A stretch of 64,000 nucleotides of DNA, taken from positions 320,001 to 384,000 of the forward strand of contig JAXDQS010000003.1 in the NCBI GenBank assembly GCA_034667725.1, given 5' to 3'. Both the position numbers and the translations under genes were made by a program. Of the stretch, positions 254 through 15,056 are shown piece by piece. The notes under the pieces were generated by a model. The model was not told the origin of the DNA, ran no database searches, and saw only the letters and a list, made by a program, of their open reading frames with translations. Origin of the DNA: Thermoplasmata archaeon. GTDB taxonomy: Archaea > Thermoplasmatota > E2 > JACPAO01 > JAHFTW01. Within the stretch, counting starts at the first letter, position 1. Each line of letters opens with the position of its first letter.

Positions 254-280
254 AGCCTTGGATGTTCCCCTTCGCGGTAT

Positions 281-1474: not shown

Positions 1475-1632
1475 GCGCCTTGGAGGGCGGGTCCCAGGAG
1501 AGTCGCAAACGCTCGGGCCCCGCCCCGTCCTATGCAAAAGCCCTTCAACCCGCACCAGGTCGGAATGTCCAGATTCGTACATCGGGTGCTTTCTTGGTCC
1601 GCTGGAACCCTTTCAAGCGCAAGTCCGCCCCC

Positions 1633-2457
1633 GTGGCGTCCGGGTGTCCGTTCGGCTTCGGGTCCGCCGCCGTCACCGCATTGGCGGCGCCCGCCGTCAC
1701 GCCGACCCCCGACTCCCCCGGCCACAGCGCCGCCGGCATGGTCCCCAACACCCCGCGCGGCAACCCTCAGCCGCTGCCCGGCCCGGCCAACGTCTCCGAC
1801 TACGAGAAGTACATGCGCGTGCCGGAGCTGCTGACGCTCCAGAAGCCCGAGGCCGCCCTCGTCCACCACGACGAGCTGATGTTCCAGGTCGTCCACCAGA
1901 GCTTCGAATTGTGGTGCAAGCTGGTGCTGTTCGAGCTGCGCACCGTCGGCAAGCTGCTGGACGAGGACCGCGTCGTCGAGGCCTACCCGCTGATCGAGCG
2001 CTGCACCGACGTCGTCAAGCTCCAGACCGACGCCATCCACGTCCTCGAGCGCATGCACCCGATGGACTTCCACGTCATCCGCGCCGCCCTCGGCCAAGGC
2101 TCCGGCGCCGAGTCCCCCGGCTTCCGCGACATCCAGCTCCACGCCCCCAGGCTCTGGCCCAAGGTCGAGGCGCTGCTGAAGCGCCGCGGCGCCAGCCTGC
2201 TGGAGATCTACGCCGAGCCCCGCAGCCACCCCGACCTCTTGCGGCTGCTGGAGCACCTCACCGACCTGGACATGTTCTTCCACATCTGGCGGCTGAACCA
2301 CCTCGCCATGGTCAAGCGCGTCATCGGCCGCGACGTCAAGTCCCTCAAGGGCTACGCCGTCCACCAGTTGGAAGTCGACGTCCAGATGGTGCTGTGGCCC
2401 GCCCTGTGGAAGGTGCGCAACCAGATCACGGAACGGGCAGGGACGAGCCCGCCTTGA
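1633..2457 (+). CDS. kynA: Tryptophan 2,3-dioxygenase
   Basis: Y..Y...ELL.LQ, HDELMFQVVHQSFELW, F..IR..LG.GSG.ESPGF and H...V.R.IG motifs; start GTG 1633 (gives GCPF N-terminus) or ATG 1738. Confidence 0.93.
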   Translation: MASGCPFGFGSAAVTALAAPAVTPTPDSPGHSAAGMVPNTPRGNPQPLPGPANVSDYEKYMRVPELLTLQKPEAALVHHDELMFQVVHQSFELWCKLVLFELRTVGKLLDEDRVVEAYPLIERCTDVVKLQTDAIHVLERMHPMDFHVIRAALGQGSGAESPGFRDIQLHAPRLWPKVEALLKRRGASLLEIYAEPRSHPDLLRLLEHLTDLDMFFHIWRLNHLAMVKRVIGRDVKSLKGYAVHQLEVDVQMVLWPALWKVRNQITERAGTSPP

Positions 2458-2525
2458 CCGGCTTCTTCCGCTTGTCCAGCCACGAAATTGGCAACATCTA
2501 AGTGCGAACCTTCGTGGGACGCCTG

Positions 2526-3539
2526 ATGCTGCGACCCTTGGCCTGGCTTGCGCCCGCCTTGCTCTTGGCGGGGTGTATCGGCGGCAACGGACCCGACGAG
2601 GTGGTCGGGCGCGAGCAGACGTTCGTCGTCCACGTCCTTGGGCCCGACGAACCTGTCCCTGGCGAGGTCCGGCTGAACCTCTTCTGGCAGGTGGGCGACG
2701 CGCTGTATCACATCGGGGGGCACGCCCACGACGGTGAAGCCGTCTTCCACGTTCCCCGGGAGGTCGTCGAGGTCCGTCTGCGGGCGGGCGGCGACGGATG
2801 GGCCAACGACATGGTGGGCGTGAAGGCGGCCGCCGCCGACGGGCAGGCCACCGTGCAAATCTACCCGGCGAAGGTGGAGGGGCGCGTCGAGGGCGTGTGG
2901 CAGACGCCGAACCCGCCAGCGAGCCCTCTGCCAATGCCCTTGGGCGTGGCCTTGACGCCTTGGCGGATGCACGACGTCACGCCCGGGGCCACCGAGGAAA
3001 CGCGCGCGGGGTTCCAGAGCCGACTCGTGCGCGCCAACGCGACGCTCGCTTGGTCGAACGGCCCCGGGGCGCAGGCGGATTTCGGGGCCGGCCTGCTGCG
3101 CCGCGACGCCGCCGACGAGTGCGCGTTCGCAGACAACGAAAACCAGTTCGGCGTGGACGGCGCCGCCCAGGAGTCGTTGGAGGCCAAGAGCACGTTCGGC
3201 TATGATCCGTGCAAGGCCTACCTCTCCTCCGGCGACCCCGACGGCCTGCCCTTGAAGGGCATCCTGGCCGGGCCCATGGCGCGCGGCGCCGTCGTCGGGC
3301 CGGTCGGCTACGCCGTGGACTATCGGCTGGAGTTTGGCGACCCCGTTGTTGGGGACGCTTTCGAGTTTGACGACGGATGCCCCGTGTGCCACTACGACAC
3401 GTTCTACGAGGTCGACCCCGAGACGGGCGACGCCTACCGGATGTCGTGGCCCCTGGGCGCCGCCGCCTCGCCCGCGCTGGCTGCGATGGCCGTCCTTCTG
3501 CTGGCCGCCATTCCCCTGCGCCGCCGCAAGGCGCCCTAG
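2526..3539 (+). CDS. Lipobox-containing surface protein with C-terminal TM anchor and basic tail
   Basis: MLRPLAWLAPALLLAGC lipobox; C-terminus SPALAAMAVLLLAAIPLRRRKAP. Confidence 0.75.
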   Translation: MLRPLAWLAPALLLAGCIGGNGPDEVVGREQTFVVHVLGPDEPVPGEVRLNLFWQVGDALYHIGGHAHDGEAVFHVPREVVEVRLRAGGDGWANDMVGVKAAAADGQATVQIYPAKVEGRVEGVWQTPNPPASPLPMPLGVALTPWRMHDVTPGATEETRAGFQSRLVRANATLAWSNGPGAQADFGAGLLRRDAADECAFADNENQFGVDGAAQESLEAKSTFGYDPCKAYLSSGDPDGLPLKGILAGPMARGAVVGPVGYAVDYRLEFGDPVVGDAFEFDDGCPVCHYDTFYEVDPETGDAYRMSWPLGAAASPALAAMAVLLLAAIPLRRRKAP

Positions 3540-3583
3540 GGCATGCGAAGCCTTCAGATACGCGCCTCCATGGGACGCTGCCC

Positions 3584-4822
3584 TTGCTGTTCGACGTGTT
3601 CTTCAGCATCTCGCAGACGCCGGTCGACGGCCGCACGCCGTCGGAGCCCGAGATGCTCCGGAGCTTCTTCGATCAAGTCGAGGCCGCCGACCGGCTCGGC
3701 TACGGGGTGGCGTGGATCGCGGAGTCGCACCTCTCCACCCACGTCCAGAAGCGCAACCCCAACCCCGTCGTCCCCCACTGGCAGGGCGAGGTGGGCCTCA
3801 ACGCGGACATCCTGCAGATGGCGCACGCCGTGTTCGCGCGCACCCGGCGCATCGAGGTCGGCAGCGCGGTGCTGAACCTGCTGTGCAACGGCGGCCCCGT
3901 CGCGCACGCCGAGCGCATCGCCACCTGGGCCAGCCTGCACGGCCTCGACCCCAGCGAACGCCGCCGGCTCCACGTCGGCTTCAGCGCCGGCCGCTTCGAC
4001 TACCAGAACCGCGCCTACGGCGTCGTCCCCCGCACGCCGCTGGAGAAGGCGATGCCGTTCGGCCTGTGGAAGGGCAAGGTGTTCGAGGAGGCCGCCGAAG
4101 TGTTCGCCCGCGTCCTGCTGGGCGGCGTCGTGGCCGGCGCCGACGTCGCGGAGCGCACGGTCGCGCGCGCCGACTGCCGCACCGACGCCGACTGGGACCG
4201 CATCGCCGCCGCCGCGAGCGCCGAAGGCCGGCTCGACGGCGACCGCGTGCGGCTGCCGAAGTGGTTCACCTTCGAGCCGCTCCAGGTGATTCCGAAGGAG
4301 TGGCGGCGCGGCCTGGTGCAGCTCGTCGTCGGCAGCCACGACCCCGTCGTGCACGCCCTCGTCAACCGGTTCCTGCCGGCGCACATCGCCAACCTGAGCA
4401 TCACGCCGCCCGCCGTCATCGAGGCGACCCACGACCGGATGCGGCGCGAGTTCCATCCGGACGGCGGCCCGTGGAAGCGCTCCTACATGCCGCGCACCGT
4501 CATGGTGTTCCTCAACGAGGAGGCCGGCCTCACGCCGGCGGCGCGGACCGAGGCGGCCAAGGCCGAGGCGAAGAAGGCGCTCACCGCCTACTGGAACGCG
4601 CTGGAGGGCACGCTCGACCCCAAGAAGGTGAACGAGGCGGCGGACAACGCTGTCATCGGCAACGCCGCGGAGGTCGCGTCCCAACTGGCGGCGCGCTACC
4701 ACCCGGAGGACCGCCTCATGCTCTGGTTCGACTTCTTCAACCACGACTCGGCGCGCGTGATCCGGAACATGGAGGCGTTCATGCAGAAGGTCGCGCCGAG
4801 GCTGCAGGAGGTCGCCGCATGA
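3584..4822 (+). CDS. Luciferase-like (LLM) flavin-dependent monooxygenase
   Basis: AADRLGYGVAWIAESH, RTRRIEVGSAV, GFSAGR and VIGNAAEVA LLM motifs; TTG start 31 nt after TTCAGA box; stop overlaps next start (ATGA). Confidence 0.88.
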   Translation: MLFDVFFSISQTPVDGRTPSEPEMLRSFFDQVEAADRLGYGVAWIAESHLSTHVQKRNPNPVVPHWQGEVGLNADILQMAHAVFARTRRIEVGSAVLNLLCNGGPVAHAERIATWASLHGLDPSERRRLHVGFSAGRFDYQNRAYGVVPRTPLEKAMPFGLWKGKVFEEAAEVFARVLLGGVVAGADVAERTVARADCRTDADWDRIAAAASAEGRLDGDRVRLPKWFTFEPLQVIPKEWRRGLVQLVVGSHDPVVHALVNRFLPAHIANLSITPPAVIEATHDRMRREFHPDGGPWKRSYMPRTVMVFLNEEAGLTPAARTEAAKAEAKKALTAYWNALEGTLDPKKVNEAADNAVIGNAAEVASQLAARYHPEDRLMLWFDFFNHDSARVIRNMEAFMQKVAPRLQEVAA

Positions 4823-5949
4823 AGCATCACCTGGAGTCCGGCCCCGGCTCCGAGATGTACCCCACCTCGCCGCTCGGGGAGCAGGCCAAAGGCATCCCGA
4901 CCGGCCGCGACGTCGAGTGGGAGCCGCTGGTGGACTACCGCCGCCACGGCATCAGCGAGACCACCATCCACGGCGCCGTCGCGTGGGCCAGCGGCAAGAA
5001 GATCATCCACTCCTTCGGCGGCAACGTGCTGTGCTACGGCCGCTCGATGATGAAGCCGTTCGCGATGAAGGTGTTCGCCGAGGAGCTCGCGGGCCTGTCG
5101 TGGGAGCAGAAGGCGATCGCGTGCAGCAGCCACAACGGCGACGTCGAGCACGTGGCGGCCGCCCAGAGCATCCTGCAACCGACCGAGTGGGGCCTGATGC
5201 AGGCGCCGCTCGACGTGCCCCTCGTGCAGTTCGGCCGCCAGGTGCGCCGCCCCCGCCGCTGGTACCACACCTGCTCCGGCGAGCACGCCGCCATCCTGCG
5301 GGGCTGCAAGGCGAAGGGCTGGCCGCGCATCGGCTACCTGCTGCCGCAGCATCCCTGGTTCTCGGCCTACCTGGGCCAGATGCAGCGCTTCCTCGGCAAC
5401 GACTGGCAGCCGCTGCGGGTCGCCCGCGACGGCTGCGGCCTGCCCACCGCCAGCAACACGGTCGCCGAGCTTGCCCTGCTGTACGCGAGCCTGGCCCAGC
5501 GCAAGGACGAGGACTGGATCTGGGAGGCGATGGTGCGCAACCCGGACCTGGTGGGCGGCTTCAACCGGCTCGACTCGACCATCCTGAAGGCGTGCGGCGG
5601 CAAGGTCCTGGCCAAGGAGGGCGCCGACGGCCTGCTGGGCCTCGCCATCGAGCACCCGGACTACCCGGACGGCCTCGGCGTCGTCATCAAGATCGCCCAC
5701 GGCTGGAACCCGCGGGCCACCTGGTACGTCGCGCGGGCCATCCTCGGCGTCCTCGGCTTCGAGCTCAGGAACCCCTACAAGCTGCACCGCCAGAAGGCGT
5801 TCCTGGTCCCCGGCATCGTGCCCCCGAAATACGCCAAGGCGCTGGAGGAGATCCCCACGTGGGACACTTGGGACCCCAACGACGACCGCTGGTACTACGA
5901 CTGGGAGAAGTGGAGCGAGGAGTGGCCGGCGCCGGGGTGGTCGCCGTGA
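4819..5949 (+). CDS. Class 3 (Rhizobium etli-type, Asparaginase_II) asparaginase homologue, divergent
   Basis: RSMMKP, SHNG, TCSGEH (canonical NCSGKH), DGCGLP and AKEGADG motifs in the correct order. Confidence 0.85.
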   Translation: MKHHLESGPGSEMYPTSPLGEQAKGIPTGRDVEWEPLVDYRRHGISETTIHGAVAWASGKKIIHSFGGNVLCYGRSMMKPFAMKVFAEELAGLSWEQKAIACSSHNGDVEHVAAAQSILQPTEWGLMQAPLDVPLVQFGRQVRRPRRWYHTCSGEHAAILRGCKAKGWPRIGYLLPQHPWFSAYLGQMQRFLGNDWQPLRVARDGCGLPTASNTVAELALLYASLAQRKDEDWIWEAMVRNPDLVGGFNRLDSTILKACGGKVLAKEGADGLLGLAIEHPDYPDGLGVVIKIAHGWNPRATWYVARAILGVLGFELRNPYKLHRQKAFLVPGIVPPKYAKALEEIPTWDTWDPNDDRWYYDWEKWSEEWPAPGWSP

Positions 5950-6317
5950 AGGAGCCCCGCGCCGCCGCGCTGGCGCTCGCCGTGGCCGCCGTGCTGGCGT
6001 TCTGGGTCCCCCTGCTGCTTGCCGTCGACGGCCGGTCCTGGGCCCTCTGGCTCACGTCGTTCACGCACGTCCCGGCCTGGATCGCCTTGGCCTTGGCCTG
6101 GCCCGCCGACCGCGTCGTCGTCCTGGGGCAATGGCGCAGCATCGCGCTCCTGCTCGCCCTTGCCGCCATCGCCGGCCACGCCTGGTTCTCGCTGCTGGTG
6201 TCCCTCAACAGCGGCCTCCCCTTGGCAGCGATTCTGGCCCTTTTGGTGCCCGCGATCGTGCTGGCGGCCCGCTGGCATCTCGCCTCGCCCCAGGCGGAAA
6301 CCCCCATGAACCCCTAG
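5946..6317 (+). CDS. Small 4-TM membrane protein
   Basis: GTGA overlap with upstream stop; four hydrophobic segments. Confidence 0.65.
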   Translation: MKEPRAAALALAVAAVLAFWVPLLLAVDGRSWALWLTSFTHVPAWIALALAWPADRVVVLGQWRSIALLLALAAIAGHAWFSLLVSLNSGLPLAAILALLVPAIVLAARWHLASPQAETPMNP

Positions 6318-6457
6318 GCCTCGTGGCCTCCTTGGTGACCGACGGCTTCGGCTGGCTGGAGAAGGACCGCGCGGTCCATCAGCGCGACCTCGGGCGGGCC
6401 TACGGGCACTTGCGCCGCGAGGGCGAACGGGAGCGCGAGGCCGAGGCCGCCGCGTGC

Positions 6458-7894
6458 ATGGTGCGCAAGACGCCAAACTGGATCGGCGGCAAGCCCGCGT
6501 TCTCGCAGGGCGGCTTCATCAAGGACCTCGACCCGGCCACGGGTGCGATCATCGCGACCATCCCGCGCAGCCAGAAGGACGACGTGGACGCCGCCGTCGC
6601 CGCCGCCACGGCCGCGTTTCCCGCGTGGGCTGCCACCCCGCTCGCGGAACGCTGCCGCATCCTCGACCGCATCGCGGACATCCTGGAGGCCGACCTCGAC
6701 ACCATCGCGCGCCTGGAGTCGCTGGACACGGGGAAGCCCATCACGCTGGCCCGGCGCATGGACGCCGACCGCTCGGTGCGCAACTTCCGCTTCTTCGCCC
6801 AGTTCGCGCGCGACTGGCGCGACGCCGACCACCCGATGGAAGGGCACGGCAACCGCACCCACCGCAAGCCGCTCGGCGTCGTCGCCCTCGTCACGCCGTG
6901 GAACCTGCCGCTCTACCTGCTGTCCTGGAAAGTGGCCCCCGCGCTCGCGATGGGCAACACCATCGTCGCCAAGCCGAGCGAACTGACCCCGCTCACCGCC
7001 GACCACCTCGCCCGCGTCGCGAAGGAGGCAGGCCTCCCCGACGGCGTCCTCAACATCGTCCACGGCTACGGCCCCGAGGCCGGGCAGGCCCTCGTCGAGC
7101 ATCCCGATGTCAAGGCCGTGAGCTTCACGGGCGGCACCGCCACCGGCCGCAAGGTCGCAGCCAGCGCCGCCGCGACCCTCAAGAAAGTCAGCCTGGAGCT
7201 CGGCGGCAAGAACCCGACCCTCGTGTTCGCCGACTGCGACCTCGACGCCACCGTCGAAGGGGTCGTCCGCAGCGCCTTCACCAACGCCGGCCAGATCTGC
7301 CTGTGCGGCAGCCGCGTCCTCGTCGAGCAGTCGATCGAGCCCGCGTTCCGCGCCCGCCTGGTCGAGCGGGTGCGGGCCCTGCGCGTCGGCGACCCCATGG
7401 ACCCCGCCACCGACGTCGGCGCCCTCATCTCGCAGGAGCACCGTGCCAAGGTCGAGGGCTACCTCGCCCTCGCCCGCGACGAGGGCGGCCAGGTCCTGGT
7501 CGGCGGCAAGCGCCCCGACGACCCCCGGCTCGCCAAGGGCGCCTTCCTGGAGCCGACCGTGATCGCGGGACTGCCCCAGTCGTCGCGCTGCGTGCAGGAG
7601 GAAATCTTCGGCCCCGTCGTCACCCTGCAGCCGTTCGCGACCCAGGCCGAGGCCGTCGCGCTGGCCAACGACGTGCCGTACGGGCTCGCCGCCACCGTCT
7701 GGACCCAGGACGCCGCCAAGGCCGACCGCGTCGCCGAGGCCCTGGACTCCGGGATGGTATGGGTCAACTGCTGGCTGGTGCGCGACCTCCGGGTCCCGTT
7801 CGGCGGCATGAAGCAGAGCGGCGTCGGCCGCGAGGGCGGGCACTGGTCGCTGGAGTTCTTCAGCGAGGCCCGCAACATCTGCGTCAAGGCCTAA
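6458..7894 (+). CDS. 2-aminomuconate 6-semialdehyde dehydrogenase (ALDH8A1/AmnC/NbaE-like)
   Basis: PWNLPLYLLSWKVAPAL, SFTGGTATG, SLELGGKNP, catalytic GQICLCGSR, EEIFGPV, WVNCWLVRDLRVPFGGMKQSGVGREGG. Confidence 0.9.
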   Translation: MVRKTPNWIGGKPAFSQGGFIKDLDPATGAIIATIPRSQKDDVDAAVAAATAAFPAWAATPLAERCRILDRIADILEADLDTIARLESLDTGKPITLARRMDADRSVRNFRFFAQFARDWRDADHPMEGHGNRTHRKPLGVVALVTPWNLPLYLLSWKVAPALAMGNTIVAKPSELTPLTADHLARVAKEAGLPDGVLNIVHGYGPEAGQALVEHPDVKAVSFTGGTATGRKVAASAAATLKKVSLELGGKNPTLVFADCDLDATVEGVVRSAFTNAGQICLCGSRVLVEQSIEPAFRARLVERVRALRVGDPMDPATDVGALISQEHRAKVEGYLALARDEGGQVLVGGKRPDDPRLAKGAFLEPTVIAGLPQSSRCVQEEIFGPVVTLQPFATQAEAVALANDVPYGLAATVWTQDAAKADRVAEALDSGMVWVNCWLVRDLRVPFGGMKQSGVGREGGHWSLEFFSEARNICVKA

Positions 7895-7918
7895 AGAGCG
7901 GACCCGGTCGGCGCCGCC

Positions 7919-8335
7919 GTGGAGTCCCCGTACCTGCTGGTCAGCCCCGCCCTCGCCGGCTACGTCGCCGGCTTCGTCCTCATGGCGCCCGCCCTCCAGG
8001 CCGCAAGCCGGGCCAGCCCCGTCGGCAAGGGCCGCGCCTTCATCTTCGCCATCCTGCCGCTGGCGGGCCTGCTGTTCGCGTTCGTCGCGGCGTTCCTGGC
8101 CTCCGGCAACGGCGCCGACATCCCCACGCCGCTCATGCTGCTGGGCGCCGCGGCCGCCGTGCAGTGCATCCTGCAAGGGTTCCTGGTGCGCGCCCGCCTT
8201 GGCACGCTCGACCCCGCCGACCCGCAGGACCCGGCCTTCGGGAAGCTCCTTGCCATGGTTGTCGCTTGCGAGGTGCTGACCATCCTCGCGTTCATCAACG
8301 CCTTCCTGGCGATGGGCCGGGCGACGGCGGGCTAG
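7919..8335 (+). CDS. Orphan V/A-type ATPase subunit K (double-hairpin proteolipid)-like membrane protein
   Basis: GRAFIFAILPLAGLLFAFVAAFL ... ILQG ... FGKLLAMVVACEVLTILAFINAFL mirrors NtpK helices 2-4, including helix-3 Gln and helix-4 Glu. Confidence 0.6.
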   Translation: MESPYLLVSPALAGYVAGFVLMAPALQAASRASPVGKGRAFIFAILPLAGLLFAFVAAFLASGNGADIPTPLMLLGAAAAVQCILQGFLVRARLGTLDPADPQDPAFGKLLAMVVACEVLTILAFINAFLAMGRATAG

Positions 8336-8373
8336 CACCACCTTCAAGGACCGGGAGCCCTGCTGGCGGCGCC

Positions 8374-9297
8374 ATGCCTGGCAAGAGTGGCCGCATCGTC
8401 GCCGGCTGCCTCACGCCCCACCCGCCTCACCTCGTCTACGCCGACAACCCGCCCCAGAACGAGCCGCGCGCCGAATGCGGCTGGGAGACGGTGCGCTGGG
8501 GCTACGAGCGGCTGCGCCACAGCCTGGGCCGCCGCGACTACGACGTCCTCATCGTTCACTCGCCGCACTGGCGCACCCAGGTCGGCCACCACTTCCTCGG
8601 CGTCCCCCACTTCTCGAACCTGAGCGTGGACCCGATCTTCCCCAACCTGTTCCGGTTCAAGTGCGACATCGACGTCGACGTCGAACTGGCCGAAGCCATC
8701 GAGCAGCGCGCCCGCAAGAAGGGCCTTGTCACCAAGATGATGCGCAACCCCGCCTACCGCGTCGACTACGGCACCATCGCGGCGTGCCACCTCGTCAACC
8801 CGGCGTGGGACAAGCCCATCGTCGGCATCAGCTCCAACGGCGCCTACAAGTATTACTCGAACGACGTGGGGCAGGCCCAGCAGCGCGCCCTCGGCGAAGC
8901 AACCAAGGAGGCCATCGAGGCCACCGGCCGCAAGGCGCTGCTGCTCGCAAGCAACTCGATCAGCCACCGCCACTTCACCCGCGAAGGCCCGCTCCCCGAG
9001 GACATGAGCCAGGAGCGCATCTACCACCACGGCCAGTACCTGTGGGACATGCACGCCATCCGCCTCATGCGCGAAGGCCGCGCCGAGCAGCTGTTCGACG
9101 AGATGCCCGACCTGATCGACGACGCCACCTCGGAGGCCGACGCCGGCTGCCTCAGTTGGCTCTTGTCCGCCTTGGGCTACCCGAAGTATCCCGCCGAGCT
9201 GCATGGCTACGGCACGGTGATCGGCACCGGCAACGCCGTCGTCGAATGGGACCCGGACCCCAAGACAAGACAAGTGACGCCACGGGGAAGGACCTAG
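8374..9297 (+). CDS. amnB: 2-aminophenol 1,6-dioxygenase beta (catalytic) subunit, LigB-type extradiol dioxygenase
   Basis: PHPPHLVYADNPPQNEPR, SPHW, SVDPIFPNLFR, RVDYGTI, SHRHF and GTVIGTGNAVVEW match AmnB/CnbCb, including His/His/Glu Fe ligands. Confidence 0.92.
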   Translation: MPGKSGRIVAGCLTPHPPHLVYADNPPQNEPRAECGWETVRWGYERLRHSLGRRDYDVLIVHSPHWRTQVGHHFLGVPHFSNLSVDPIFPNLFRFKCDIDVDVELAEAIEQRARKKGLVTKMMRNPAYRVDYGTIAACHLVNPAWDKPIVGISSNGAYKYYSNDVGQAQQRALGEATKEAIEATGRKALLLASNSISHRHFTREGPLPEDMSQERIYHHGQYLWDMHAIRLMREGRAEQLFDEMPDLIDDATSEADAGCLSWLLSALGYPKYPAELHGYGTVIGTGNAVVEWDPDPKTRQVTPRGRT

Positions 9298-9342
9298 CAA
9301 AAAACGCTATACCGAGCCGCCGATGCCGACGTGGTCCCGCCC

Positions 9343-9792
9343 ATGCGCTCCACCCTGCTCGCCTGCGCCTGCCTTCTGACCGCGATCTTGGCTGCCGCCC
9401 CCGTGGGCGCCTCGCCGCCCCCCGGCTACGACCCCAAGAGCTGCCGCTTCGCCATCGAGACGCACGGCATCGACGCCCACTGCACCGTCAAGGGCATGAC
9501 CGTCGGCGGCTACGTGGACTGCAACACCAACTGCGACTTCACCGGCCACGAATGGTCGTGCTTCTTCAGCACCGGCGGCCCCGTGGACTACTTCCAGTGC
9601 CCGGTGGCGGACCTGCTGCCGGACGCCTACTGCGTCCTCACCCCCACCAGCGCTGGCCTGTTCGGCGCCTGCACGATCGCCGGCAGCACCCTCCCCATCC
9701 TGGTCGGGTGCGAGAGCTGCGTCCCGCTCTGGGTCGGCCCCACCTGCACCCTCGGCCTCAAGGACGGCACGCCGGTCGCCGTGTGCGCCTGA
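9343..9792 (+). CDS. Secreted Cys-rich protein (12 Cys in mature part, two 6-Cys halves)
   Basis: Signal peptide MRSTLLACACLLTAILAAAPVGA; GC3-rich codons. Confidence 0.75.
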   Translation: MRSTLLACACLLTAILAAAPVGASPPPGYDPKSCRFAIETHGIDAHCTVKGMTVGGYVDCNTNCDFTGHEWSCFFSTGGPVDYFQCPVADLLPDAYCVLTPTSAGLFGACTIAGSTLPILVGCESCVPLWVGPTCTLGLKDGTPVAVCA

Positions 9793-9844
9793 GGACGCCA
9801 GAGGGGCCGCAACCGTCAAGGCGGCGGCCCTTCTGGCCGGGCCG

Positions 9845-11281
9845 ATGAGCCGCAAGGCCGCCCCAAAGGCCACGGGCACAAGGTCCGCGCCCAGCCCCAA
9901 CGCCGCCTCCGGCCTCGTCGCCGCCTTCCTCGTCCCCGGCCTCCCGCATCCGTACCTCATCCCGGACGCGAACCCGGGCTACCGCCGCGTCCGCGACGCC
10001 TACGACGCCGTGCGCACCGAAGTGCAGCGCCTCAAGCCCGACCTGCTGCTGCTCTACTCGACCCAGTGGCTCTCCGTCGTCGGCCACCAAGTCCAAGCGC
10101 GTGCGGAAGCGGTCTGGGACCACGTCGACCCCGAGTGGCACGAGCTGGGGCACATCCCCTACAAGCTCCGGTTCGACCCTGCCTTCGGAGCCCAGTACGT
10201 CGAGAAGGGCCGCGCCCGCGGCCTCGAGATGCGCACCGTGGACTACCACGGCTTCCCCATCGACACCGGCACCGTCATCGCGCTCAAGCTGCTGGACCCC
10301 GACGGCCGCATCCCCGCCAGCGTGGTGTCGTGCAACATGTACGCCGACCGCGCCGAGACCATCGTGCTCGGCAAGGCCGCCCGTGACGCCGCCCAAGCCA
10401 CCGGCAAGCGCGTCGTCGCCGTCGCTGTCACCGCCCTCAGCAGCCGCCTGCACACCGGCATCGTGCCGTGGAAGGACGACCGCATCCACAGCCTCAAGGA
10501 CGACGAGTGGAACCGCAAGTACCTCGAGTTCCTCGGCAAGGGCCGCCTCGAGGACGCCAGCCAGCTCGCCCGCGAGTTCAGCAGCCAGGCCAACGGCGAC
10601 CAGAAGCTGAAGGCCGTCTGGTGGCTGTCCGCCGTCATGGGGGCCAGCAACGCCTACGACGGCCGCGTCTTCGCCTACGAGCCGCTCTACGGCACCGGCG
10701 CCGCCCTCGTCGGCCTCACCCCGACCCAGAAGGCCACGGCGGACAAGGAGTTCGACGAGGACGACGCCGAGGTCTATCTCGGCGACCGCAACGTCCTCTC
10801 CAGCGGCTCCGACGCGGCGACCCTCACGATGGAGGAGCAGGACAAGTGGGCCGGGACCGCGACCGTCGTGCACGCCAAGGCCGCGCCCAAGCCCGTCGGC
10901 GCGTACGCGCACGCCCGCCTAGTTGGCGACCTCCTGTTCCTCGCCGGCATCGGGCCCCGCACGCCCGGCACGGACGAGATTCCCGGCGGCCCCATCCGCG
11001 ACGCCAACGGCAAGCCGCGCGACTACGACGTCCGCGCCCAGACCCGGCAATGCATCGAGAACGTCAAGGCCGTGCTCAAGGAGTCCGGCGCCAGCCTGGA
11101 GGACGTCTTCGACGTGCAGGTGTTCCTGGTCGACATGGACCGCGACTTCGCGGCGTTCAACGAGGTCTACGGCGAGCACTTCGGGAGCATCCAGGCCACG
11201 CGCACGACGGTCGAGGTCGAGGCGCTGCCGACGCCGATCGCGGTCGAGCTGAAGGTCATCGCGCAGGTGCGCAAGGCATGA
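9845..11281 (+). CDS. Fusion: 2-aminophenol 1,6-dioxygenase alpha subunit + RidA-family 2-aminomuconate deaminase
   Basis: N-part AFLVPGLPHP, YSTQW, DYHGFPIDTGT and YEPLYGTGAA (AmnA); C-part APKPVGAY, DMDRDFAAFNEVY and TRTTVEVEALPTPIAVELKVIA (RidA/AmnD/NbaF type). Confidence 0.88.
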   Translation: MSRKAAPKATGTRSAPSPNAASGLVAAFLVPGLPHPYLIPDANPGYRRVRDAYDAVRTEVQRLKPDLLLLYSTQWLSVVGHQVQARAEAVWDHVDPEWHELGHIPYKLRFDPAFGAQYVEKGRARGLEMRTVDYHGFPIDTGTVIALKLLDPDGRIPASVVSCNMYADRAETIVLGKAARDAAQATGKRVVAVAVTALSSRLHTGIVPWKDDRIHSLKDDEWNRKYLEFLGKGRLEDASQLAREFSSQANGDQKLKAVWWLSAVMGASNAYDGRVFAYEPLYGTGAALVGLTPTQKATADKEFDEDDAEVYLGDRNVLSSGSDAATLTMEEQDKWAGTATVVHAKAAPKPVGAYAHARLVGDLLFLAGIGPRTPGTDEIPGGPIRDANGKPRDYDVRAQTRQCIENVKAVLKESGASLEDVFDVQVFLVDMDRDFAAFNEVYGEHFGSIQATRTTVEVEALPTPIAVELKVIAQVRKA

Positions 11282-12072
11282 GCGCCCCCATCCGCCTCCA
11301 GTTGTCCGACGACGAGGCCGCCGTCCTGTGGGACCTCATCATGGAGTCCAGCGAAGAGGACCAGCGCATCCTGCGCCGCGTCGCCGGCGAGCTGGAGCCG
11401 CACGTGCTGGAGGGCGACGACGAACCCGAGGCGGCGCCGGCCCAAGACCCCGAAGGAATCCTCGACATCAGCCCCCTCGTCTCGCCCCGCATCGCCGTCT
11501 GGCCGGGCGACGTCCCGTACACCAGCCGCAAGTCCGCCACCCTTGGTCCCGCCGGCGGCATCGACCTCGGCGACATGCACACCACCTACCACGTCGGCGC
11601 CCACACCGACGCGCCGCGGCACTACAAGCTCGGCGCCGCCGACGCCGCCTCGGTCCCGCTCGAGCCCTACGTCGGCCCGTGCCAAGTGGTGCAGGTGCGC
11701 GCCCGCCGCGGCAAGCGCTTCGGCCTCGTGGACCTGGCGCAGCAGGTGACGGCGCCGCGGGTGCTGTTCAAGACCGGCACCTTCCCCGACCCGCACGCCT
11801 GGAACACCGACTTCGCTGCCCCCGAGCCGGAGCTGCTGGACGCCTTGGCCGCCCGCGGCGTCGTCCTCGTGGGCTTCGACACGCCGAGCACCGACCTGTT
11901 CGACTCCAAGGACCTGGCCGCGCATCAGCGGCTCGCCAAGCACGGCATGATGAACCTCGAAGGGCTCGTGCTGGACCACGTCGCGCCCGGCGACTACACC
12001 TTGGTCGCGCTGCCCCTGAAGCTCCAGGACGCCGACGCAAGCCCGGTGCGGGCCGTCCTGCTGCCGCCGTGA
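11278..12072 (+). CDS. kynB: Kynurenine formamidase (cyclase family) with acidic N-terminal extension
   Basis: DISP....WPGD, HVGAHTDAPRH metal motif, GFDTPSTD, NLEGL, ALPLKLQDADASPVRAV; ATGA-coupled to upstream gene. Confidence 0.88.
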   Translation: MSAPIRLQLSDDEAAVLWDLIMESSEEDQRILRRVAGELEPHVLEGDDEPEAAPAQDPEGILDISPLVSPRIAVWPGDVPYTSRKSATLGPAGGIDLGDMHTTYHVGAHTDAPRHYKLGAADAASVPLEPYVGPCQVVQVRARRGKRFGLVDLAQQVTAPRVLFKTGTFPDPHAWNTDFAAPEPELLDALAARGVVLVGFDTPSTDLFDSKDLAAHQRLAKHGMMNLEGLVLDHVAPGDYTLVALPLKLQDADASPVRAVLLPP

Positions 12073-12121
12073 AGCCCGCGCGTTGGACAACTTCAAGCCC
12101 TGCGCACCCACCCAGGTCCCG

Positions 12122-12703
12122 ATGGCCGCCCCCGTCCCGCGCCGCCCCTTGCCGCCCGCGCGCGCCGCCTACCGCTTCCCGACCCAGCCCGACCCGGCCA
12201 TGAAGACCGTGTGGGCGATCCGCGCCGCCGGCTTCGGGCTGTTCTACGCCATCCCGGTGACCTTCATGCTGGGTCCCTTGAGCCTGTTCCTGCGCGGCGA
12301 CGAGAAGCCCACGACGCTGCTCGACGTGGTCGGCCCCCTGATCGGCGTCTACGTCGCCGCCTGGCTCGTCTTCACCGTGATCGGCGTCGTGTACGCCCAA
12401 CTGGCCTGGGGCCGCTACCGCATCGAGGTGCGCGACGAGGAGGTCGTCGTCCACAAGGGCGTCCTGTTCCGCACCACCAGCCGCGTCCCGCTCCGGAAAG
12501 TGCAGGACATCCACGTCCGCCAAGGCCCGCTGCTGCGCGCGTTCGGCCTGGCCAGCCTCAAGCTCGACACCGCCGGCGGCTACGGCCCCGCCAACTCCGG
12601 CCGCGGCATGGCCGCCGAAGGCCAGATGCCCGGCATCCGCGACGCCCACGCGGCGGCCGAGGCCCTCATGGTGCGCGTCAAGCAGATCCGCAGCGACCTG
12701 TAG
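12122..12703 (+). CDS. Membrane protein with bacterial PH domain (bPH_2/YdbS-like)
   Basis: Two TMs then Y......V.V.KGVLFR...VPLRKVQDI...QGPL.R.FGLA.L...TAGG. Confidence 0.85.
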   Translation: MAAPVPRRPLPPARAAYRFPTQPDPAMKTVWAIRAAGFGLFYAIPVTFMLGPLSLFLRGDEKPTTLLDVVGPLIGVYVAAWLVFTVIGVVYAQLAWGRYRIEVRDEEVVVHKGVLFRTTSRVPLRKVQDIHVRQGPLLRAFGLASLKLDTAGGYGPANSGRGMAAEGQMPGIRDAHAAAEALMVRVKQIRSDL

Positions 12704-12707
12704 CGCC

Positions 12708-13268
12708 ATGATCGGGATTCCGCCGCGCCGCCTCGAGACGGTCCTGGTCGTCTCGGCCTTCGCCGGCACGCTCGTGGCCGCCATCCTCGGCTTGGCCCAC
12801 GCCAGCAGCGCCCTCCTGCTGTTCTGGCTGGAGACCGCCATCGTGCTCGCCGTCGGCGCCGTCCGGGGCGCGCTGCGCCGCGCCCCCAAGCCCGCCGCGC
12901 TGGCGCTGTTCTTCGGCTTCTTCCTGTTCGTCCACCTCCAGTTCCTCATCGCCCTGGCGGCAGCCGACCAAGGCGACTCCTTCCTGGTGTTCCGGCCCGG
13001 CTTCGCGCCCGGCCTGTTCGTGCCGCTGCTGCTGCCCGCCCTCGGCCTTGCCGTCGGCCACGCCCTCGCCGCCCCGCCCAAGGACGCGCTGCCCGCCGCC
13101 GCCATCGCCCGCGTCCTGGTGCTGCACGTCGCCCTCGTCCTCGGCGGCTTCGCCTCCTTCGTGCTCGGCACCGCCGTCCCCGTGCTGTTCGTCCTCACCG
13201 CCTTGCGCCTTGCCGCCGAGTTCGTGCCCGTGCGCTGGCCGTCGCGGCTTTCACCCCGCGCGGCTTGA
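12708..13268 (+). CDS. Hydrophobic membrane protein (DUF6498-like)
   Basis: LLLFWLE, FFGFFLFVH and RVLVLHVALVLGG pattern; multi-TM. Confidence 0.6.
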   Translation: MIGIPPRRLETVLVVSAFAGTLVAAILGLAHASSALLLFWLETAIVLAVGAVRGALRRAPKPAALALFFGFFLFVHLQFLIALAAADQGDSFLVFRPGFAPGLFVPLLLPALGLAVGHALAAPPKDALPAAAIARVLVLHVALVLGGFASFVLGTAVPVLFVLTALRLAAEFVPVRWPSRLSPRAA

Positions 13269-13275
13269 GCCGGGC

Positions 13276-14061
13276 GTGGACCTCTCCCTGCGCGGCCGCC
13301 ACGCCCTCGTGTGCGGCGCCTCCCAAGGCATCGGCCAGGCCGCCGCCGTCGCGCTCGCCGAGCTGGGCGCCACCGTCACGGTGCTGGCGCGCAACCCCGC
13401 CAAGCTCGCCTCGCTGCGCCCCATCCTGATGCAGGCCGGCGCCACCGAGACCCACATGATCGTGGCGGACCTCGACGACCGCGCCGGGCTGCGCGAGGCG
13501 GTCGCGGCCCATCTGGAAAAGGCGGGGCCGGTCCACATCCTGGTCAACAACACCGGCGGCCCCCACTCCGGCGCCCTGCTGGAGACCAAGGAGGCGGAGT
13601 TCCTCCACGCCTACGGCCGCCACCTCCTGGCCAGCCACCTCCTGGTCCAGCTCGTCGTGCCCGGCATGAAGGAAGCCGGCTACGGCCGCATCGTCAACGT
13701 CCTCTCCACCAGCGTCCGCGAGCCCATCCCCGGCCTCGGCGTCTCGAACACCATCCGCGCCACCATGGCCTCGTGGGCCAAGACCCTCAGCCGCGAGCTG
13801 CCGCCCGGCGTCACCATCAACTCGGTGCTGCCCGGCTACACCGACACCGAACGGCTGACCGAACTGTCCACCACGATGGCGGCCCGGCAAGGGAAGTCGC
13901 CCAAGGACGTGGCGAAGGGATGGGTGGACGTGACACCCGAAGGCCGCTTGGGTCGGCCTGAGGAAATCGGGAGCGTCATCGCGTTCCTGTGCAGCCCGGC
14001 GGCGTCGTTCGTGCGCGGCGTGGTGCTGCCGGTGGATGGCGGGCGGCTGAACTCGATCTAG
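13276..14061 (+). CDS. SDR family oxidoreductase with atypical active site (SNTIR instead of YxxxK)
   Basis: GASQGIG, ILVNNTGGP, GLGVSNTIR, NSVLPGYTDTER, VDGG. Confidence 0.9.
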   Translation: MDLSLRGRHALVCGASQGIGQAAAVALAELGATVTVLARNPAKLASLRPILMQAGATETHMIVADLDDRAGLREAVAAHLEKAGPVHILVNNTGGPHSGALLETKEAEFLHAYGRHLLASHLLVQLVVPGMKEAGYGRIVNVLSTSVREPIPGLGVSNTIRATMASWAKTLSRELPPGVTINSVLPGYTDTERLTELSTTMAARQGKSPKDVAKGWVDVTPEGRLGRPEEIGSVIAFLCSPAASFVRGVVLPVDGGRLNSI

Positions 14062-14805
14062 TCACTCCGAACCGTCCTCGTAGTCCAGGCAGCCAACATC
14101 GTTGATGTCCACAGCGCCATCCATGTCGTTGTCCGCCTTGTCGTCGCACACGGGCGGCACGCAGCCGGTCCCGTTCACCTTCATCCAGACGTCGTAGGTT
14201 CCGGACGAGGCGCCACCACCAACGTTGCCGGGGATGGAACTGCCCCAGTTGCCAATGAAGGCCACGATTTGGCCCTGGGTCCACGGCGCAGGGGCGCTGG
14301 GGTTCGCGGGCACCATGCAGAAAAAATGGGTGAATTCGGCGTCGGTTGGATCGGGGCAGTCCTTGGCGTCCTTGTCCTGCCCCTTGCAGTCTGCGCCTGG
14401 GACCGGCTTGTTCGAGTAAGCGAAGCGAAGCTGGTCCGTGGCGTCCCCAATGTTGCGGCACCAGCCATTCAGGTCGCGGTCGTTGCACACGGCCAGGTCG
14501 AACCCGGTCTGGAACTTGCCGCTGGTCCACTCGGCCCACACGCTGACGTCCACGGTCCCTGATGCAGGAAAGGCGGACATGTCGAAGACCGCGATCCCAG
14601 GCGTCGTGGTGGGGGCCATGAAGCACGGGACGTCATCCTTGAGACAGGGCTTCGAGAGCGCATGAATCGGCCCCAGGGCGGACCAACACTCGATGTTGTC
14701 CCCGTCCGCGTTGGTGTTGATCTCGGTGGAGCAGTCTGTGTCGCCATCGGAAGGGTTGGTGTCGTACGGGTTGCCGCTTGCCGACAGCGTGGCGACGGCG
14801 AGCAC
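14062..14805 (-). CDS. Secreted Cys/Asp-rich protein with Ca-binding-like C-terminal motif (start uncertain)
   Basis: Hydrophobic VLAVATLSASG leader; CDDKADNDMDGAVDINDVGC and CNDRDLNGWC motifs; lower GC than flanks. Confidence 0.7.
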   Translation of the reverse strand: MLAVATLSASGNPYDTNPSDGDTDCSTEINTNADGDNIECWSALGPIHALSKPCLKDDVPCFMAPTTTPGIAVFDMSAFPASGTVDVSVWAEWTSGKFQTGFDLAVCNDRDLNGWCRNIGDATDQLRFAYSNKPVPGADCKGQDKDAKDCPDPTDAEFTHFFCMVPANPSAPAPWTQGQIVAFIGNWGSSIPGNVGGGASSGTYDVWMKVNGTGCVPPVCDDKADNDMDGAVDINDVGCLDYEDGSE

Positions 14806-14807
14806 GG

Positions 14808-15056
14808 CTATCCGAACCAGCGTTGCAGCCAGGCGCCGAGGTCGGTCCAGGCCTTCTCGCCGGCGGGCGTGACGCGGATGCCACTTTCGTCCTCGATGGC
14901 CCAGCCTTTCTCGATGGCCATGGCGAGGTAGCGGCGGAACAGGTCGTAGTTGAGGCGGGTGGCGGCTTGGAGGCGGCTGCGGCTCCATGTCGTGCCTGGG
15001 CGTGCCAGGGCGCCGAGGAGGCGGGCGACGACGTGCAGGTCGAAGCGGGCGGGCAT
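14808..15056 (-). CDS. Archaeal winged helix-turn-helix protein (HTH_45-like)
   Basis: RSRLQAATRLNYDLFRRYL...KGW......VTPAG pattern. Confidence 0.8.
   Translation of the reverse strand: MPARFDLHVVARLLGALARPGTTWSRSRLQAATRLNYDLFRRYLAMAIEKGWAIEDESGIRVTPAGEKAWTDLGAWLQRWFG

Follow-up and report, generated by a model that had tools for sequence, protein, structure and literature searches.

How could a microbe pass from tryptophan to 2-aminophenol when kynureninase is missing? The question is raised by positions 1633-14061 of the window, a 64,000-nucleotide stretch of contig JAXDQS010000003.1 from a Thermoplasmata archaeon (2.32-Mb genome, 90% complete). The initial annotation had placed here a co-oriented cluster with TDO, KynB and a 2-aminophenol lower pathway. 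It proposed that a luciferase-like monooxygenase (LLM) and an asparaginase homologue bridge the two halves. This layout was confirmed by a GC3 frame plot together with Pfam, NCBIfam and PDB searches, which gave the 14 co-oriented genes below. Counts out of 80 refer to the best 80 loci of at least 589.

1633..2457, + strand: putative TDO (KynA), short divergent form (PF03301, 115 bits, cut-off 34.9; GC3 frame)
2502..3539, + strand: lipoprotein-like protein ending in a TM helix and a basic tail, no Pfam or NCBIfam match (0/80 loci)
3584..4822, + strand: LLM, divergent luciferase-like (group C flavin) monooxygenase homologue, 412 aa (PF00296, 43 bits, over cut-off)
4819..5949, + strand: class-3-asparaginase homologue ("the hydrolase"), 376 aa (PF06089, 174 bits)
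5946..6317, + strand: small multi-TM membrane protein, lineage-specific, start uncertain (GC3 frame, hydrophobic translation; 0/80 loci)
6323..7894, + strand: predicted 2-aminomuconate-6-semialdehyde dehydrogenase, AmnC / ALDH8A1 type ("ALDH"; PF00171, 594 bits)
7919..8335, + strand: small membrane protein, lineage-specific (1/80 loci)
8374..9297, + strand: AmnB, predicted 2-aminophenol 1,6-dioxygenase beta (catalytic) subunit (CnbCb similarity)
9331..9792, + strand: Cys-rich secreted protein, lineage-specific (0/80 loci)
9845..11281, + strand: AmnA-RidA fusion (PF02900 and PF01042)
11278..12072, + strand: KynB, predicted kynurenine formamidase, cyclase family (PF04199)
12083..12703, + strand: bPH_2-domain membrane protein, lineage-specific (PF03703; 0/80 loci)
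12708..13268, + strand: DUF6498 membrane protein, lineage-specific (PF20108; 0/80 loci)
13276..14061, + strand: classical SDR, conserved cluster member (PF13561 and PF00106)

Eight of these genes are of conserved type: TDO, LLM, Asparaginase_II, ALDH, AmnB, AmnA-RidA, KynB and SDR. The SDR is an addition to the first reading. The other six, which encode small membrane or secreted proteins, are lineage-specific, lie scattered between the pathway genes and are unconserved elsewhere (0-1/80 loci). The ATGA overlap between the LLM stop and the hydrolase start is real (4819-4822), and a second one joins AmnA-RidA to KynB (11278-11281). The LLM start was set at TTG 3584 because orthologs open with MxFD[VI]FFSISQTP; the start first read was rejected by these ortholog N-termini. 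For TDO, an alternative start at TTG 1594 is possible. ORF 8475-9848, considered as AmnB, was rejected since its frame is wrong and Pfam gave no match.

The lower pathway (AmnB, AmnA, RidA and ALDH) can be assigned firmly from sequence. AmnB matched CnbCb (3vsg_B) at E 3e-115 and 8ihg_A at E 8e-111, and is about 62% identical to enzymes using free 2-aminophenol or 2-amino-5-chlorophenol. It conserves the residues aligned with CnbCb His13, His62 and Glu251, which we take to be the Fe ligands. The RidA deaminase, first read as a gene of its own, proved to be the C-terminal domain of AmnA. The AmnA alpha subunit spans residues ~22-290 (7txy_A, E 1e-50) and the RidA-type 2-aminomuconate deaminase ~338-476 (6izh, E 2e-23); the same fusion was found in Myxococcota loci. 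The best PDB matches of ALDH were AMSDH 4u3w (E 5e-141), 7bzv and 4i1w. The SDR occurs in 51/80 loci and in 19 of the 20 hydrolase-positive Myxococcota. Its ortholog heads one canonical cluster, L107, in the order SDR-AMSDH-RidA-3HAO-ACMSD-kynureninase. With AMSDH and the deaminase as its neighbours there, the SDR may belong to the lower pathway, perhaps catalysing an NAD(P)H-dependent reaction once 2-aminomuconate has been deaminated. A search for genes acting past 2-oxohex-3-enedioate found only one generic FAH-family protein.

The entry enzymes score under the cut-offs of curated models. TDO scored 127 bits against TIGR03036, under the cut-off of 391, and KynB scored 202 bits against the arylformamidase model TIGR03035, just below the cut-off of 223. 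Only 23 of the 80 loci include TDO, and only 28 the cyclase-type formamidase. In loci lacking this formamidase, an alpha/beta-hydrolase stands in for it.

As the initial annotation had stated, no kynureninase lies in the window, and none was found when the search was extended to the whole source genome. No strong candidate for kynurenine 3-monooxygenase (KMO) was found in that genome either (PF01494 matches of at most 60 bits). The search for 3-HAO gave no match, but its control genomes gave none either. Among 38 genomes of the source order, 34 have TDO and none has a kynureninase that passes the curated cut-off. The hydrolase query matched 32 of the 38 at E<=1e-20; about 28 of these matches are at ortholog level (76-89% identity) and the remainder are only a 30-37% identical paralog.

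The cluster is carried by hundreds of uncultured archaeal and bacterial species. A hydrolase ortholog was found in at least 589 species genomes, and the core of LLM, hydrolase, ALDH, AmnB and AmnA-RidA recurs in Thermoplasmatota, Marine Group II (MGII), Myxococcota, Planctomycetota, Acidobacteriota and others. Among the best 80 of these loci, LLM is present in 75, ALDH in 72 and AmnB in 63; many of the absences fall where a contig stops. In 68 of its 75 loci, LLM is the gene immediately before the hydrolase. One 8-Mb genome, of unknown completeness, has the hydrolase-AmnB-AmnA trio and no LLM ortholog detectable with this query.

We profiled an even sample of 151 Myxococcota genomes, in which related genomes are non-independent and statistical significance is overstated. 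The hydrolase was found in 20 genomes, never without both LLM and AmnB, each of which occurs in only one further genome (21/151 each). This association persisted when the genes sat on separate contigs. TDO was present in 19 of the 20 hydrolase-positive genomes compared with 46 of the 131 others. Kynureninase was found in 27 genomes, with no overlap with the hydrolase-positive set, and 20 genomes have TDO and neither route. Thus the pair co-occurs with AmnB and TDO and anti-correlates with kynU, as had been anticipated. Outside this sample, all five MGII genomes checked have TDO, always on another contig, and no kynureninase; five bacterial genomes gave the same counts (TDO 5/5, kynureninase 0/5). 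The streamlined marine archaeal genomes (1.3-2.8 Mb) keep TDO and the cluster with no other kynurenine outlet.

The AF2 model of LLM is a TIM barrel with pLDDT 92.8. The top Foldseek matches were RslO1, LuxA and 2i7g at ~15% identity, and luciferase-like structures were matched with probability 1.0 and TM-scores of 0.6-0.78. The modelled fold is that of flavin-peroxide enzymes attacking carbonyls, namely luciferase, RutA and 3,6-diketocamphane monooxygenase. Since a type II Baeyer-Villiger enzyme ranks only 41st among the structural matches, and LLM is ~15% identical to any solved structure, the fold is not specific for Baeyer-Villiger chemistry. The cluster has no flavin reductase gene of its own; two unlinked Flavin_Reduct genes elsewhere in the genome could supply reduced flavin. 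F420 CofD was not found in the source genome. We propose LLM as an (N-formyl)kynurenine Baeyer-Villiger oxygenase.

The hydrolase is annotated publicly as an L-asparaginase. It matched ReAIV and ReAV only weakly (E 1e-17, about 65 bits), and retains the ReAV nucleophile, both Ser-Lys tandems, the oxyanion residue and both metal-site Cys. Ser48, Lys51, Ser80, Lys263, Ala266, Cys135 and Cys189 are invariant in 120 orthologs. Lys138, a metal-ligand position, is replaced by Glu in 120/120, a clade-specific change. A conserved Trp-rich segment (residues ~345-365) follows the part alignable with ReAV. Identity is 74-93% to all 119 homologs listed, archaeal and bacterial, compared with 30-37% to the canonical paralogs in genomes of the source order, which places the hydrolase in a separate clade by sequence. 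In ReAV, L-Asn is held at the metal site by its alpha-NH2 and alpha-COO- groups (PMC12951835). The retained Ser-Lys tandems and metal-site Cys are what a beta-aspartyl substrate would need. We propose the enzyme as a beta-aspartyl-(2-aminophenol) hydrolase.

The following route can be drawn. By homology, TDO would open the indole ring of tryptophan and KynB would take off the formyl group to give kynurenine. An FMN-dependent LLM would then direct its flavin peroxide at the aryl-ketone carbonyl of kynurenine or N-formylkynurenine, and oxygen insertion with aryl migration would give the beta-aspartyl ester of 2-aminophenol, which might shift to N4-(2-hydroxyphenyl)asparagine. With the alpha-amino acid head bound at its metal site, the hydrolase would cut the beta-acyl bond with its Ser, releasing L-aspartate and 2-aminophenol. 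AmnAB is predicted to convert the latter to 2-aminomuconic semialdehyde, ALDH to oxidize this to 2-aminomuconate, and the RidA domain to deaminate it to 2-oxohex-3-enedioate, after which the SDR may act. We infer the Baeyer-Villiger step, the O-to-N shift and the two cleavage products from chemistry.

Co-occurrence, kynU exclusion and conservation of the hydrolase residues support the pathway-level reading first put forward. We therefore regard the cluster as very probably an aerobic tryptophan catabolism operon that bypasses kynureninase, KMO, 3-HAO and ACMSD. The specific chemistry of LLM (Baeyer-Villiger) and the hydrolase (beta-aspartyl) is favoured with modest confidence. A literature search found no published description of this kynureninase-free route. 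If it is correct, aspartate retains the ketone carbon, which the canonical route loses as CO2, no PLP enzyme is required and no quinolinate is made.

The best surviving alternative, which we think unlikely, changes the order of reactions: LLM would act on N-formylkynurenine, the hydrolase would split the product into aspartate and 2-formamidophenol, from which KynB or the alpha/beta-hydrolase, as formamidase, would finally make 2-aminophenol. With the formyl group still in place, neither the O-to-N acyl shift nor autoxidation of the aminophenol could occur. Among the pathway genes KynB indeed comes last, and its translational coupling is to AmnA-RidA rather than to TDO; the cyclase follows AmnA-RidA in bacterial loci as well, and gene content fits both orders equally. 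However, gene order is only a weak indication of reaction order, and the score of KynB on the arylformamidase equivalog model makes it look like an ordinary N-formylkynurenine formamidase.

It is quite improbable that LLM hydroxylates kynurenine, for example to 3-hydroxykynurenine, with AmnAB-type cleavage next and side-chain removal by the asparaginase-like enzyme after ring opening. 3-Hydroxykynurenine is an o-aminophenol, and the genome offers no strong KMO candidate. However, to our knowledge aromatic hydroxylation is not typical of luciferase-like TIM-barrel flavoenzymes, and AmnB resembles enzymes of free aminophenols. The ring-opened product would offer a Ser-Lys amidase no obvious C-C or vinylogous-amide substrate, and the kept alpha-amino acid metal site is better suited to a beta-aspartyl one.

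A slighter chance still is given to a core that serves an external, non-tryptophan compound (an N-acyl or aspartyl aminophenol, or another aryl ketone), with TDO and KynB as mere neighbours. Their sparse linkage to the core and the nitroaromatic role of known amn clusters speak for it. The genome-wide enrichment of TDO in hydrolase-positive Myxococcota, its presence in all MGII and bacterial genomes tested, the exclusion of kynureninase and the gene content of the streamlined archaea speak against it. An ordinary L-asparaginase beside an unrelated LLM, in an incomplete or chance assembly with kynurenine excreted or otherwise used, would suit the public annotation and the full set of ReAV catalytic residues, but is highly improbable given the sharply separate clade, the invariant Glu at position 138 and the constant company of AmnB and LLM.

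Compared with the 2-aminophenol meta-cleavage pathway of amnBACD (Pseudomonas sp. AP-3), cnbCaCb (Comamonas sp. CNB-1) and nbz (P. pseudoalcaligenes JS45), the cluster shares AmnB, AmnA, the 2-aminomuconic semialdehyde dehydrogenase and the RidA-type deaminase with high sequence similarity. In contrast, its 2-aminophenol would derive from tryptophan instead of nitrobenzene or chloronitrobenzene, AmnA and the deaminase form one protein, and genes for 4-oxalocrotonate decarboxylase, hydratase and aldolase are missing from the cluster, with the SDR conserved instead. The canonical kynurenine / 3-hydroxyanthranilate pathway (kynA, kynB, kmo, kynU, 3-HAO, ACMSD, AMSDH, AMD; Burkholderia, Cupriavidus, L107) has the same entry (TDO, formamidase) and exit (AMSDH, RidA deaminase), and L107 also has the SDR ortholog. 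Here, however, LLM, the hydrolase and AmnAB appear to replace KMO, kynureninase, 3-HAO and ACMSD. The by-product would be aspartate instead of alanine and CO2, with neither a PLP step nor a quinolinate branch. No sampled genome has both routes.

The hydrolase shares its Pfam family and its catalytic and Cys residues with ReAV and ReAIV of Rhizobium etli (PDB 7os3, 8cly, 9g66), but differs in the weak match, the Lys138 replacement, the Trp-rich C-terminal segment and a context of aromatic catabolism instead of nitrogen assimilation. LLM has the TIM-barrel fold of LuxAB, RutA, 3,6-diketocamphane 1,6-monooxygenase (4uwm) and RslO1 (7bip, the best structural match). Unlike these, it is about 60-80 residues longer at ~15% identity, has no partner reductase gene nearby and would act on an amino acid aryl ketone.

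The proposed logic is that of the 4-hydroxyacetophenone pathway of Pseudomonas fluorescens ACB, in which the Baeyer-Villiger monooxygenase HAPMO and an aryl-ester hydrolase lead to hydroquinone ring cleavage. In both, an aryl ketone would undergo Baeyer-Villiger oxidation with aryl migration, ester hydrolysis to a phenol and extradiol-type opening. However, HAPMO is a single-component FAD/NADPH type I enzyme whereas LLM is a two-component-type TIM-barrel flavoenzyme by homology, and the esterase there is an alpha/beta-hydrolase whereas the hydrolase here belongs to the beta-lactamase/glutaminase-like fold of class 3 asparaginases.

The cluster at 1633-14061 probably encodes a tryptophan route that is independent of kynureninase and runs through 2-aminophenol, as judged from sequence comparison and from gene distribution. 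The window DNA is about 70% G+C, so genes were called by third-position GC and not by ORF length. Fourteen co-oriented genes were found on the plus strand:

1633-14061, plus strand: the whole cluster (TDO, LLM, hydrolase, ALDH, AmnB, AmnA-RidA, KynB, SDR and six small ORFs)
3584-4822, plus strand: luciferase-like monooxygenase (LLM)
4819-5949, plus strand: class-3 asparaginase homologue (the hydrolase)
9845-11281, plus strand: AmnA-RidA fusion
11278-12072, plus strand: KynB, a cyclase-family formamidase
13276-14061, plus strand: SDR

The initial annotation had joined the LLM and the asparaginase homologue by an ATGA, and this overlap is present at 4819-4822. A second one lies between AmnA-RidA and KynB at 11278-11281. 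From their arrangement, these overlaps would couple the LLM to the hydrolase and AmnA-RidA to KynB. The genes around the cluster are archaeal housekeeping genes, among them a Cbf5-type pseudouridine synthase, deoxyhypusine synthase and a class I aldolase. The host is a Thermoplasmatota archaeon with a small, GC-rich genome.

Several other reading frames in and beside the cluster have secreted-type features. The minus-strand gene at 281-1582, where G+C reaches about 80%, encodes a Gly/Ala/Asp-rich low-complexity protein of 433 amino acids. This protein begins with a hydrophobic segment, belongs to no Pfam family and is probably secreted or displayed at the surface. Cys-rich or acidic products resembling secreted proteins or lipoproteins, none with a family, are encoded at 14062-14988 (minus), 9331-9792 (plus) and 2502-3539 (plus). 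The last has a lipobox-like N-terminus, and its C-terminal transmembrane helix and basic tail resemble an archaeal sorting signal.

The hydrolase had 1726 homologs at E ≤ 0.001. Among the homologs listed, 119 of 119 were 74-93% identical to it, and they came from both archaea and bacteria. A scan with one genome per species found a hydrolase relative in at least 589 species. The best 80 of these at least 589 loci were compared with the window proteins by tblastn, where many gaps are contig ends: the LLM was found in 75 of the 80 (in 68 as the immediate upstream neighbour of the hydrolase), ALDH in 72, AmnB in 63, AmnA in 58, the RidA domain in 53, SDR in 51, the cyclase in 28 and TDO in 23. 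For the five loci without LLM, three genomes have it elsewhere, one assembly is fragmentary and one 8-Mb genome gave no match. The six interspersed small membrane or secreted ORFs each had a counterpart in 0-1 of the 80 best loci and are thus treated as lineage-specific passengers. All named matches among the hydrolase homologs, where a cultured carrier was sought, were MAGs.

Myxococcota loci have AmnA and RidA fused in the same way, with an alpha/beta-hydrolase in the locus where the cyclase is missing. In loci of Marine Group II archaea (MGII) the place of the cyclase is taken by a BD-FAE/Abhydrolase_3 hydrolase together with an amino-acid permease, possibly an importer of tryptophan or kynurenine. 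In one MGII locus (L023), panB (ketopantoate hydroxymethyltransferase) lies between ALDH and AmnB at 12614-13432, and AmnA-RidA is followed at 16390-18051 by the permease, which has a pair of EF hands at its C-terminus. Two loci from bacterial genomes of 8-10 Mb (L054 and L015) contain a hydrolase/AmnB/AmnA trio with no ALDH, RidA or LLM nearby; one of these genomes gave no LLM ortholog anywhere with the window LLM as query. A single in-frame TGA was seen in each of three hydrolase or LLM orthologs (G022:C19:16119-17219, G019:C5:185593-186702 and G197:C70:14388-15596); it may reflect assembly error, a pseudogene or recoding.

The upper and lower ends of the route were assigned by comparison with known enzymes. 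TDO matched PF03301 at 115 bits (cut-off 34.9) and fell below the equivalog TIGR03036 (127 bits against 391), so it is a divergent short form. KynB scored 202 bits with TIGR03035 (cut-off 223) and was above the cut-off of PF04199. AmnB is about 62% identical (E 3e-115) to 3vsg_B, the beta subunit of 2-amino-5-chlorophenol 1,6-dioxygenase. Its residues at the positions of His13, His62 and Glu251, which we take to be the 2-His-1-carboxylate ligands, are conserved. The AmnA part, an alpha subunit, matched 7txy_A at E 1e-50. The pair thus has the make-up of AmnAB, a catalytic beta subunit with conserved ligand positions and a homologous non-catalytic alpha subunit. The top PDB matches of ALDH (4u3w, 7bzv and 4i1w; E 1e-130 to 5e-141) are 2-aminomuconate-6-semialdehyde dehydrogenases (AMSDH), and the NCBIfam HpaE and 2-HMS dehydrogenase models fell just short of their cut-offs. 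The RidA domain fused to AmnA scored 91 bits with PF01042. Its second-best RidA match in PDB is 6izh, a validated 2-aminomuconate deaminase (E 2e-23), and the domain is predicted to be related to this type. The full 2-aminophenol lower pathway that had been proposed from the sequence was recovered: AmnB, AmnA and an AMSDH-type ALDH matched, as did RidA in the form of a domain.

In the genome that contains the window, the matches to a PF01557 search for 4-oxalocrotonate decarboxylase/hydratase were limited to a generic FAH/HpaG-like protein and a second, unassigned one. Neither the cluster nor this search identified a gene for the step onward from 2-oxohex-3-enedioate. Recent work shows that, even in eukaryotes, the reactions downstream of 2-aminomuconate are not yet fully established (bioRxiv 10.64898/2026.06.05.730449).

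The distribution of kynureninase was compared with that of the cluster. The genome that contains the window (2.32 Mb, 90% complete) gave no kynureninase match at all; kynU, which had been noticed as absent from the window, was not found in the rest of this genome either. In its order, the hydrolase query had a match at E ≤ 1e-20 in 32 of 38 genomes; about 28 matches are at ortholog level (76-89% identity, some of them fragments) and the others are only a paralog of 30-37% identity. TDO was above cut-off in 34 of the 38 and kynureninase above its curated cut-off in 0. A genome of a sister family without a hydrolase ortholog has a kynureninase-like gene (G002:C197:2-1881; 95 bits, below the curated cut-off) that adjoins TDO. 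This pattern looks like a switch between two routes within the order. MGII genomes with the cluster had TDO elsewhere in the genome in 5/5 and kynureninase in 0/5. The counts were the same, 5/5 and 0/5, in five bacterial genomes with the cluster, labelled as four groups.

Next, 151 evenly sampled Myxococcota genomes were profiled.

Occurrence of pathway genes in 151 Myxococcota genomes
Hydrolase ortholog: 20
LLM: 21 (all 20 hydrolase-positive genomes and one more)
AmnB: 21 (all 20 hydrolase-positive genomes and one more)
Kynureninase: 27 (overlap with the 20 hydrolase-positive genomes, 0)
TDO: 65 (19 of 20 hydrolase-positive, 26 of 27 kynureninase-positive, 20 with neither)

The split is clear: a genome with TDO mostly has either the hydrolase route or the kynureninase route. 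Simple tests put the chance that hydrolase and kynureninase never overlap at 0.014 and give a Fisher P of 3e-7 for the association of hydrolase with TDO, both of which overstate the case because related genomes are not independent. The cluster genes also co-occur when they lie on separate contigs, as in G113, G153 and G177. The initial annotation had asked whether the LLM and asparaginase pair co-occurs with kynA and amnB and anti-correlates with kynU. Co-occurrence was found for AmnB in 20 and TDO in 19 of the 20 hydrolase-positive Myxococcota, and none of these was among the 27 with kynureninase. Its reading of the cluster was supported in every computational test run (co-occurrence, kynU exclusion and own-genome search). 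The 3-HAO search of the own genome had no match, but control genomes were unmatched too, so it carries no weight. The KMO search via PF01494 gave weak generic matches only and is not decisive.

Kynurenine is an o-aminoaryl ketone. The LLM would attack the ketone of kynurenine (or N-formylkynurenine), and migration of the electron-rich aryl group would be expected in the Criegee intermediate. This would give the 2-aminophenyl ester of the aspartate beta-carboxyl, which can rearrange to an N4-aryl asparagine. Either compound would be a beta-aspartyl derivative suited to an asparaginase-type acyl-enzyme mechanism, and the hydrolase would release L-aspartate and 2-aminophenol, the AmnAB substrate. 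We favour this specific chemistry, a Baeyer-Villiger step followed by beta-aspartyl hydrolysis, by somewhat more than an even chance.

The hydrolase matched PF06089 at 174.5 bits (cut-off 25) and was aligned with ReAV, ReAIV and 119 orthologs (120 sequences with that of the window). The two Ser-Lys tandems (Ser48-Lys51 and Ser80-Lys263) and Ala266 are invariant in 119-120 of the 120. In ReAV, Ser48 is the nucleophile, the tandems are catalytic elements and Ala266 is the oxyanion residue; the metal has no part in catalysis and anchors the alpha-amino and alpha-carboxy groups of L-asparagine (PMC12951835). Cys135 and Cys189 are invariant in the hydrolase clade (alignment of 120). The third zinc ligand of ReAV, Lys138, is replaced by Glu in 120 of 120, hence the class-3 zinc site Cys135/Lys138/Cys189 is incomplete; in related genomes, the three canonical paralogs that were correctly recovered have Lys at this position. 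The retained metal-site cysteines favour a substrate that still offers an aspartyl or asparaginyl head group. Baeyer-Villiger oxidation of kynurenine would produce an aspartyl head group, which fits the retained metal site. The genomic context argues for a beta-aspartyl substrate other than L-asparagine; the literature on class 3 asparaginases treats L-asparagine only. A conserved Trp-rich segment at residues ~345-365 of the C-terminus (consensus PTWDxWDPxxDRWYYDW) lies outside the region alignable with ReAV.

The LLM is very divergent. It scored 43.2 bits (cut-off 27.9) with PF00296, the family of group C flavin monooxygenases, and the PDB sequence search returned nothing better than E 0.007. 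Its AF2 model (pLDDT 92.8) is a (beta/alpha)8 LLM TIM barrel. In Foldseek the nearest structures were RslO1, luciferase alpha subunits (LuxA) and 2i7g (E 5e-15, about 15% identity), with RutA and 3,6-diketocamphane monooxygenase lower down at a similar identity. By its modelled fold, the LLM groups with enzymes in which flavin peroxide attacks a carbonyl carbon. As a pointer to Baeyer-Villiger chemistry in particular Foldseek was set aside: the type II Baeyer-Villiger enzyme 4uwm came at rank 41 (12% identity), no nearer than other LLMs, and the general LLM fold does not separate this chemistry from others. F420 dependence seems unlikely, since CofD was not found in the 90%-complete genome while control genomes were positive. 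FMNH2 for the LLM could come from the products of two Flavin_Reduct genes located outside the cluster. A complex prediction for LLM and hydrolase, with channelling of the labile ester in mind, scored 0.00; it gave no verdict and was counted neither way.

The SDR, a classical SDR, is part of the conserved cluster set, being present in 51 of the 80 best loci and in 19 of 20 hydrolase-positive Myxococcota. PDB and NCBIfam searches gave only generic matches of the FabG or glucose-dehydrogenase kind. In one Myxococcota locus (L107, G048:C31:1-14000) the region 249-6633 has the canonical order SDR, AMSDH, RidA, 3-HAO, ACMSD, kynureninase. This SDR is an ortholog with 51% identity to that of the window, and L107 is the single such locus. 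Since an ortholog heads a kynureninase-type cluster there, we take it as a weak hint that the SDR may act in the lower pathway common to both routes, downstream of 2-aminomuconate, where it might for instance reduce 2-oxohex-3-enedioate. A role as flavin reductase of the LLM is less likely, given this ortholog in a cluster without LLM and 59-61% identical SDRs beside unrelated genes in four other Myxococcota genomes.

Tryptophan degradation via kynurenine is textbook biochemistry, and to our knowledge the described aerobic kynurenine routes all pass through kynureninase. In a full-text literature search, neither the route nor either of the two enzyme activities was found described. The cluster appears to be a catabolic operon for an aromatic amino acid, assembled from enzymes of known families; what would be new is the pathway topology and the two predicted activities. 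The wider picture stands, in our estimate, at an even chance: a Baeyer-Villiger flavoenzyme and a repurposed class-3 asparaginase would form an undescribed major tryptophan route, the main outlet in Marine Group II/III archaea and in many uncultured Myxococcota, Planctomycetota and Acidobacteriota. AmnAB would have a natural, non-xenobiotic substrate, and the SDR could take 2-oxohex-3-enedioate onward with NAD(P)H, for example to 2-oxoadipate.

If true, at least 589 species would have a second, PLP-independent and carbon-saving branch, and metagenome annotation of tryptophan and dissolved organic nitrogen turnover would change. Some of these species are among the most abundant planktonic archaea. 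The route would also account for the wide occurrence of 2-aminophenol dioxygenase genes beyond nitroaromatic degraders, and would add two new activities to applied families, the type II Baeyer-Villiger biocatalysts and the class 3 asparaginases. The hypothesis is directly testable, because the proteins are soluble single-gene products and the substrates are commercial or easily made.

The logic of the proposed route parallels that of the 4-hydroxyacetophenone pathway, which reportedly uses a Baeyer-Villiger monooxygenase, an esterase and then ring cleavage. From kynurenine, the canonical route uses four enzymes (KMO, kynureninase, 3-HAO and ACMSD), whereas the proposed one would use three (LLM, hydrolase and AmnAB), with the same demand for oxygen and reductant. 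The canonical route needs a PLP enzyme, forms quinolinate, yields alanine and loses the ketone carbon as CO2. In contrast, the proposed route would need no PLP enzyme, form no quinolinate and yield aspartate, in which the ketone carbon is kept.
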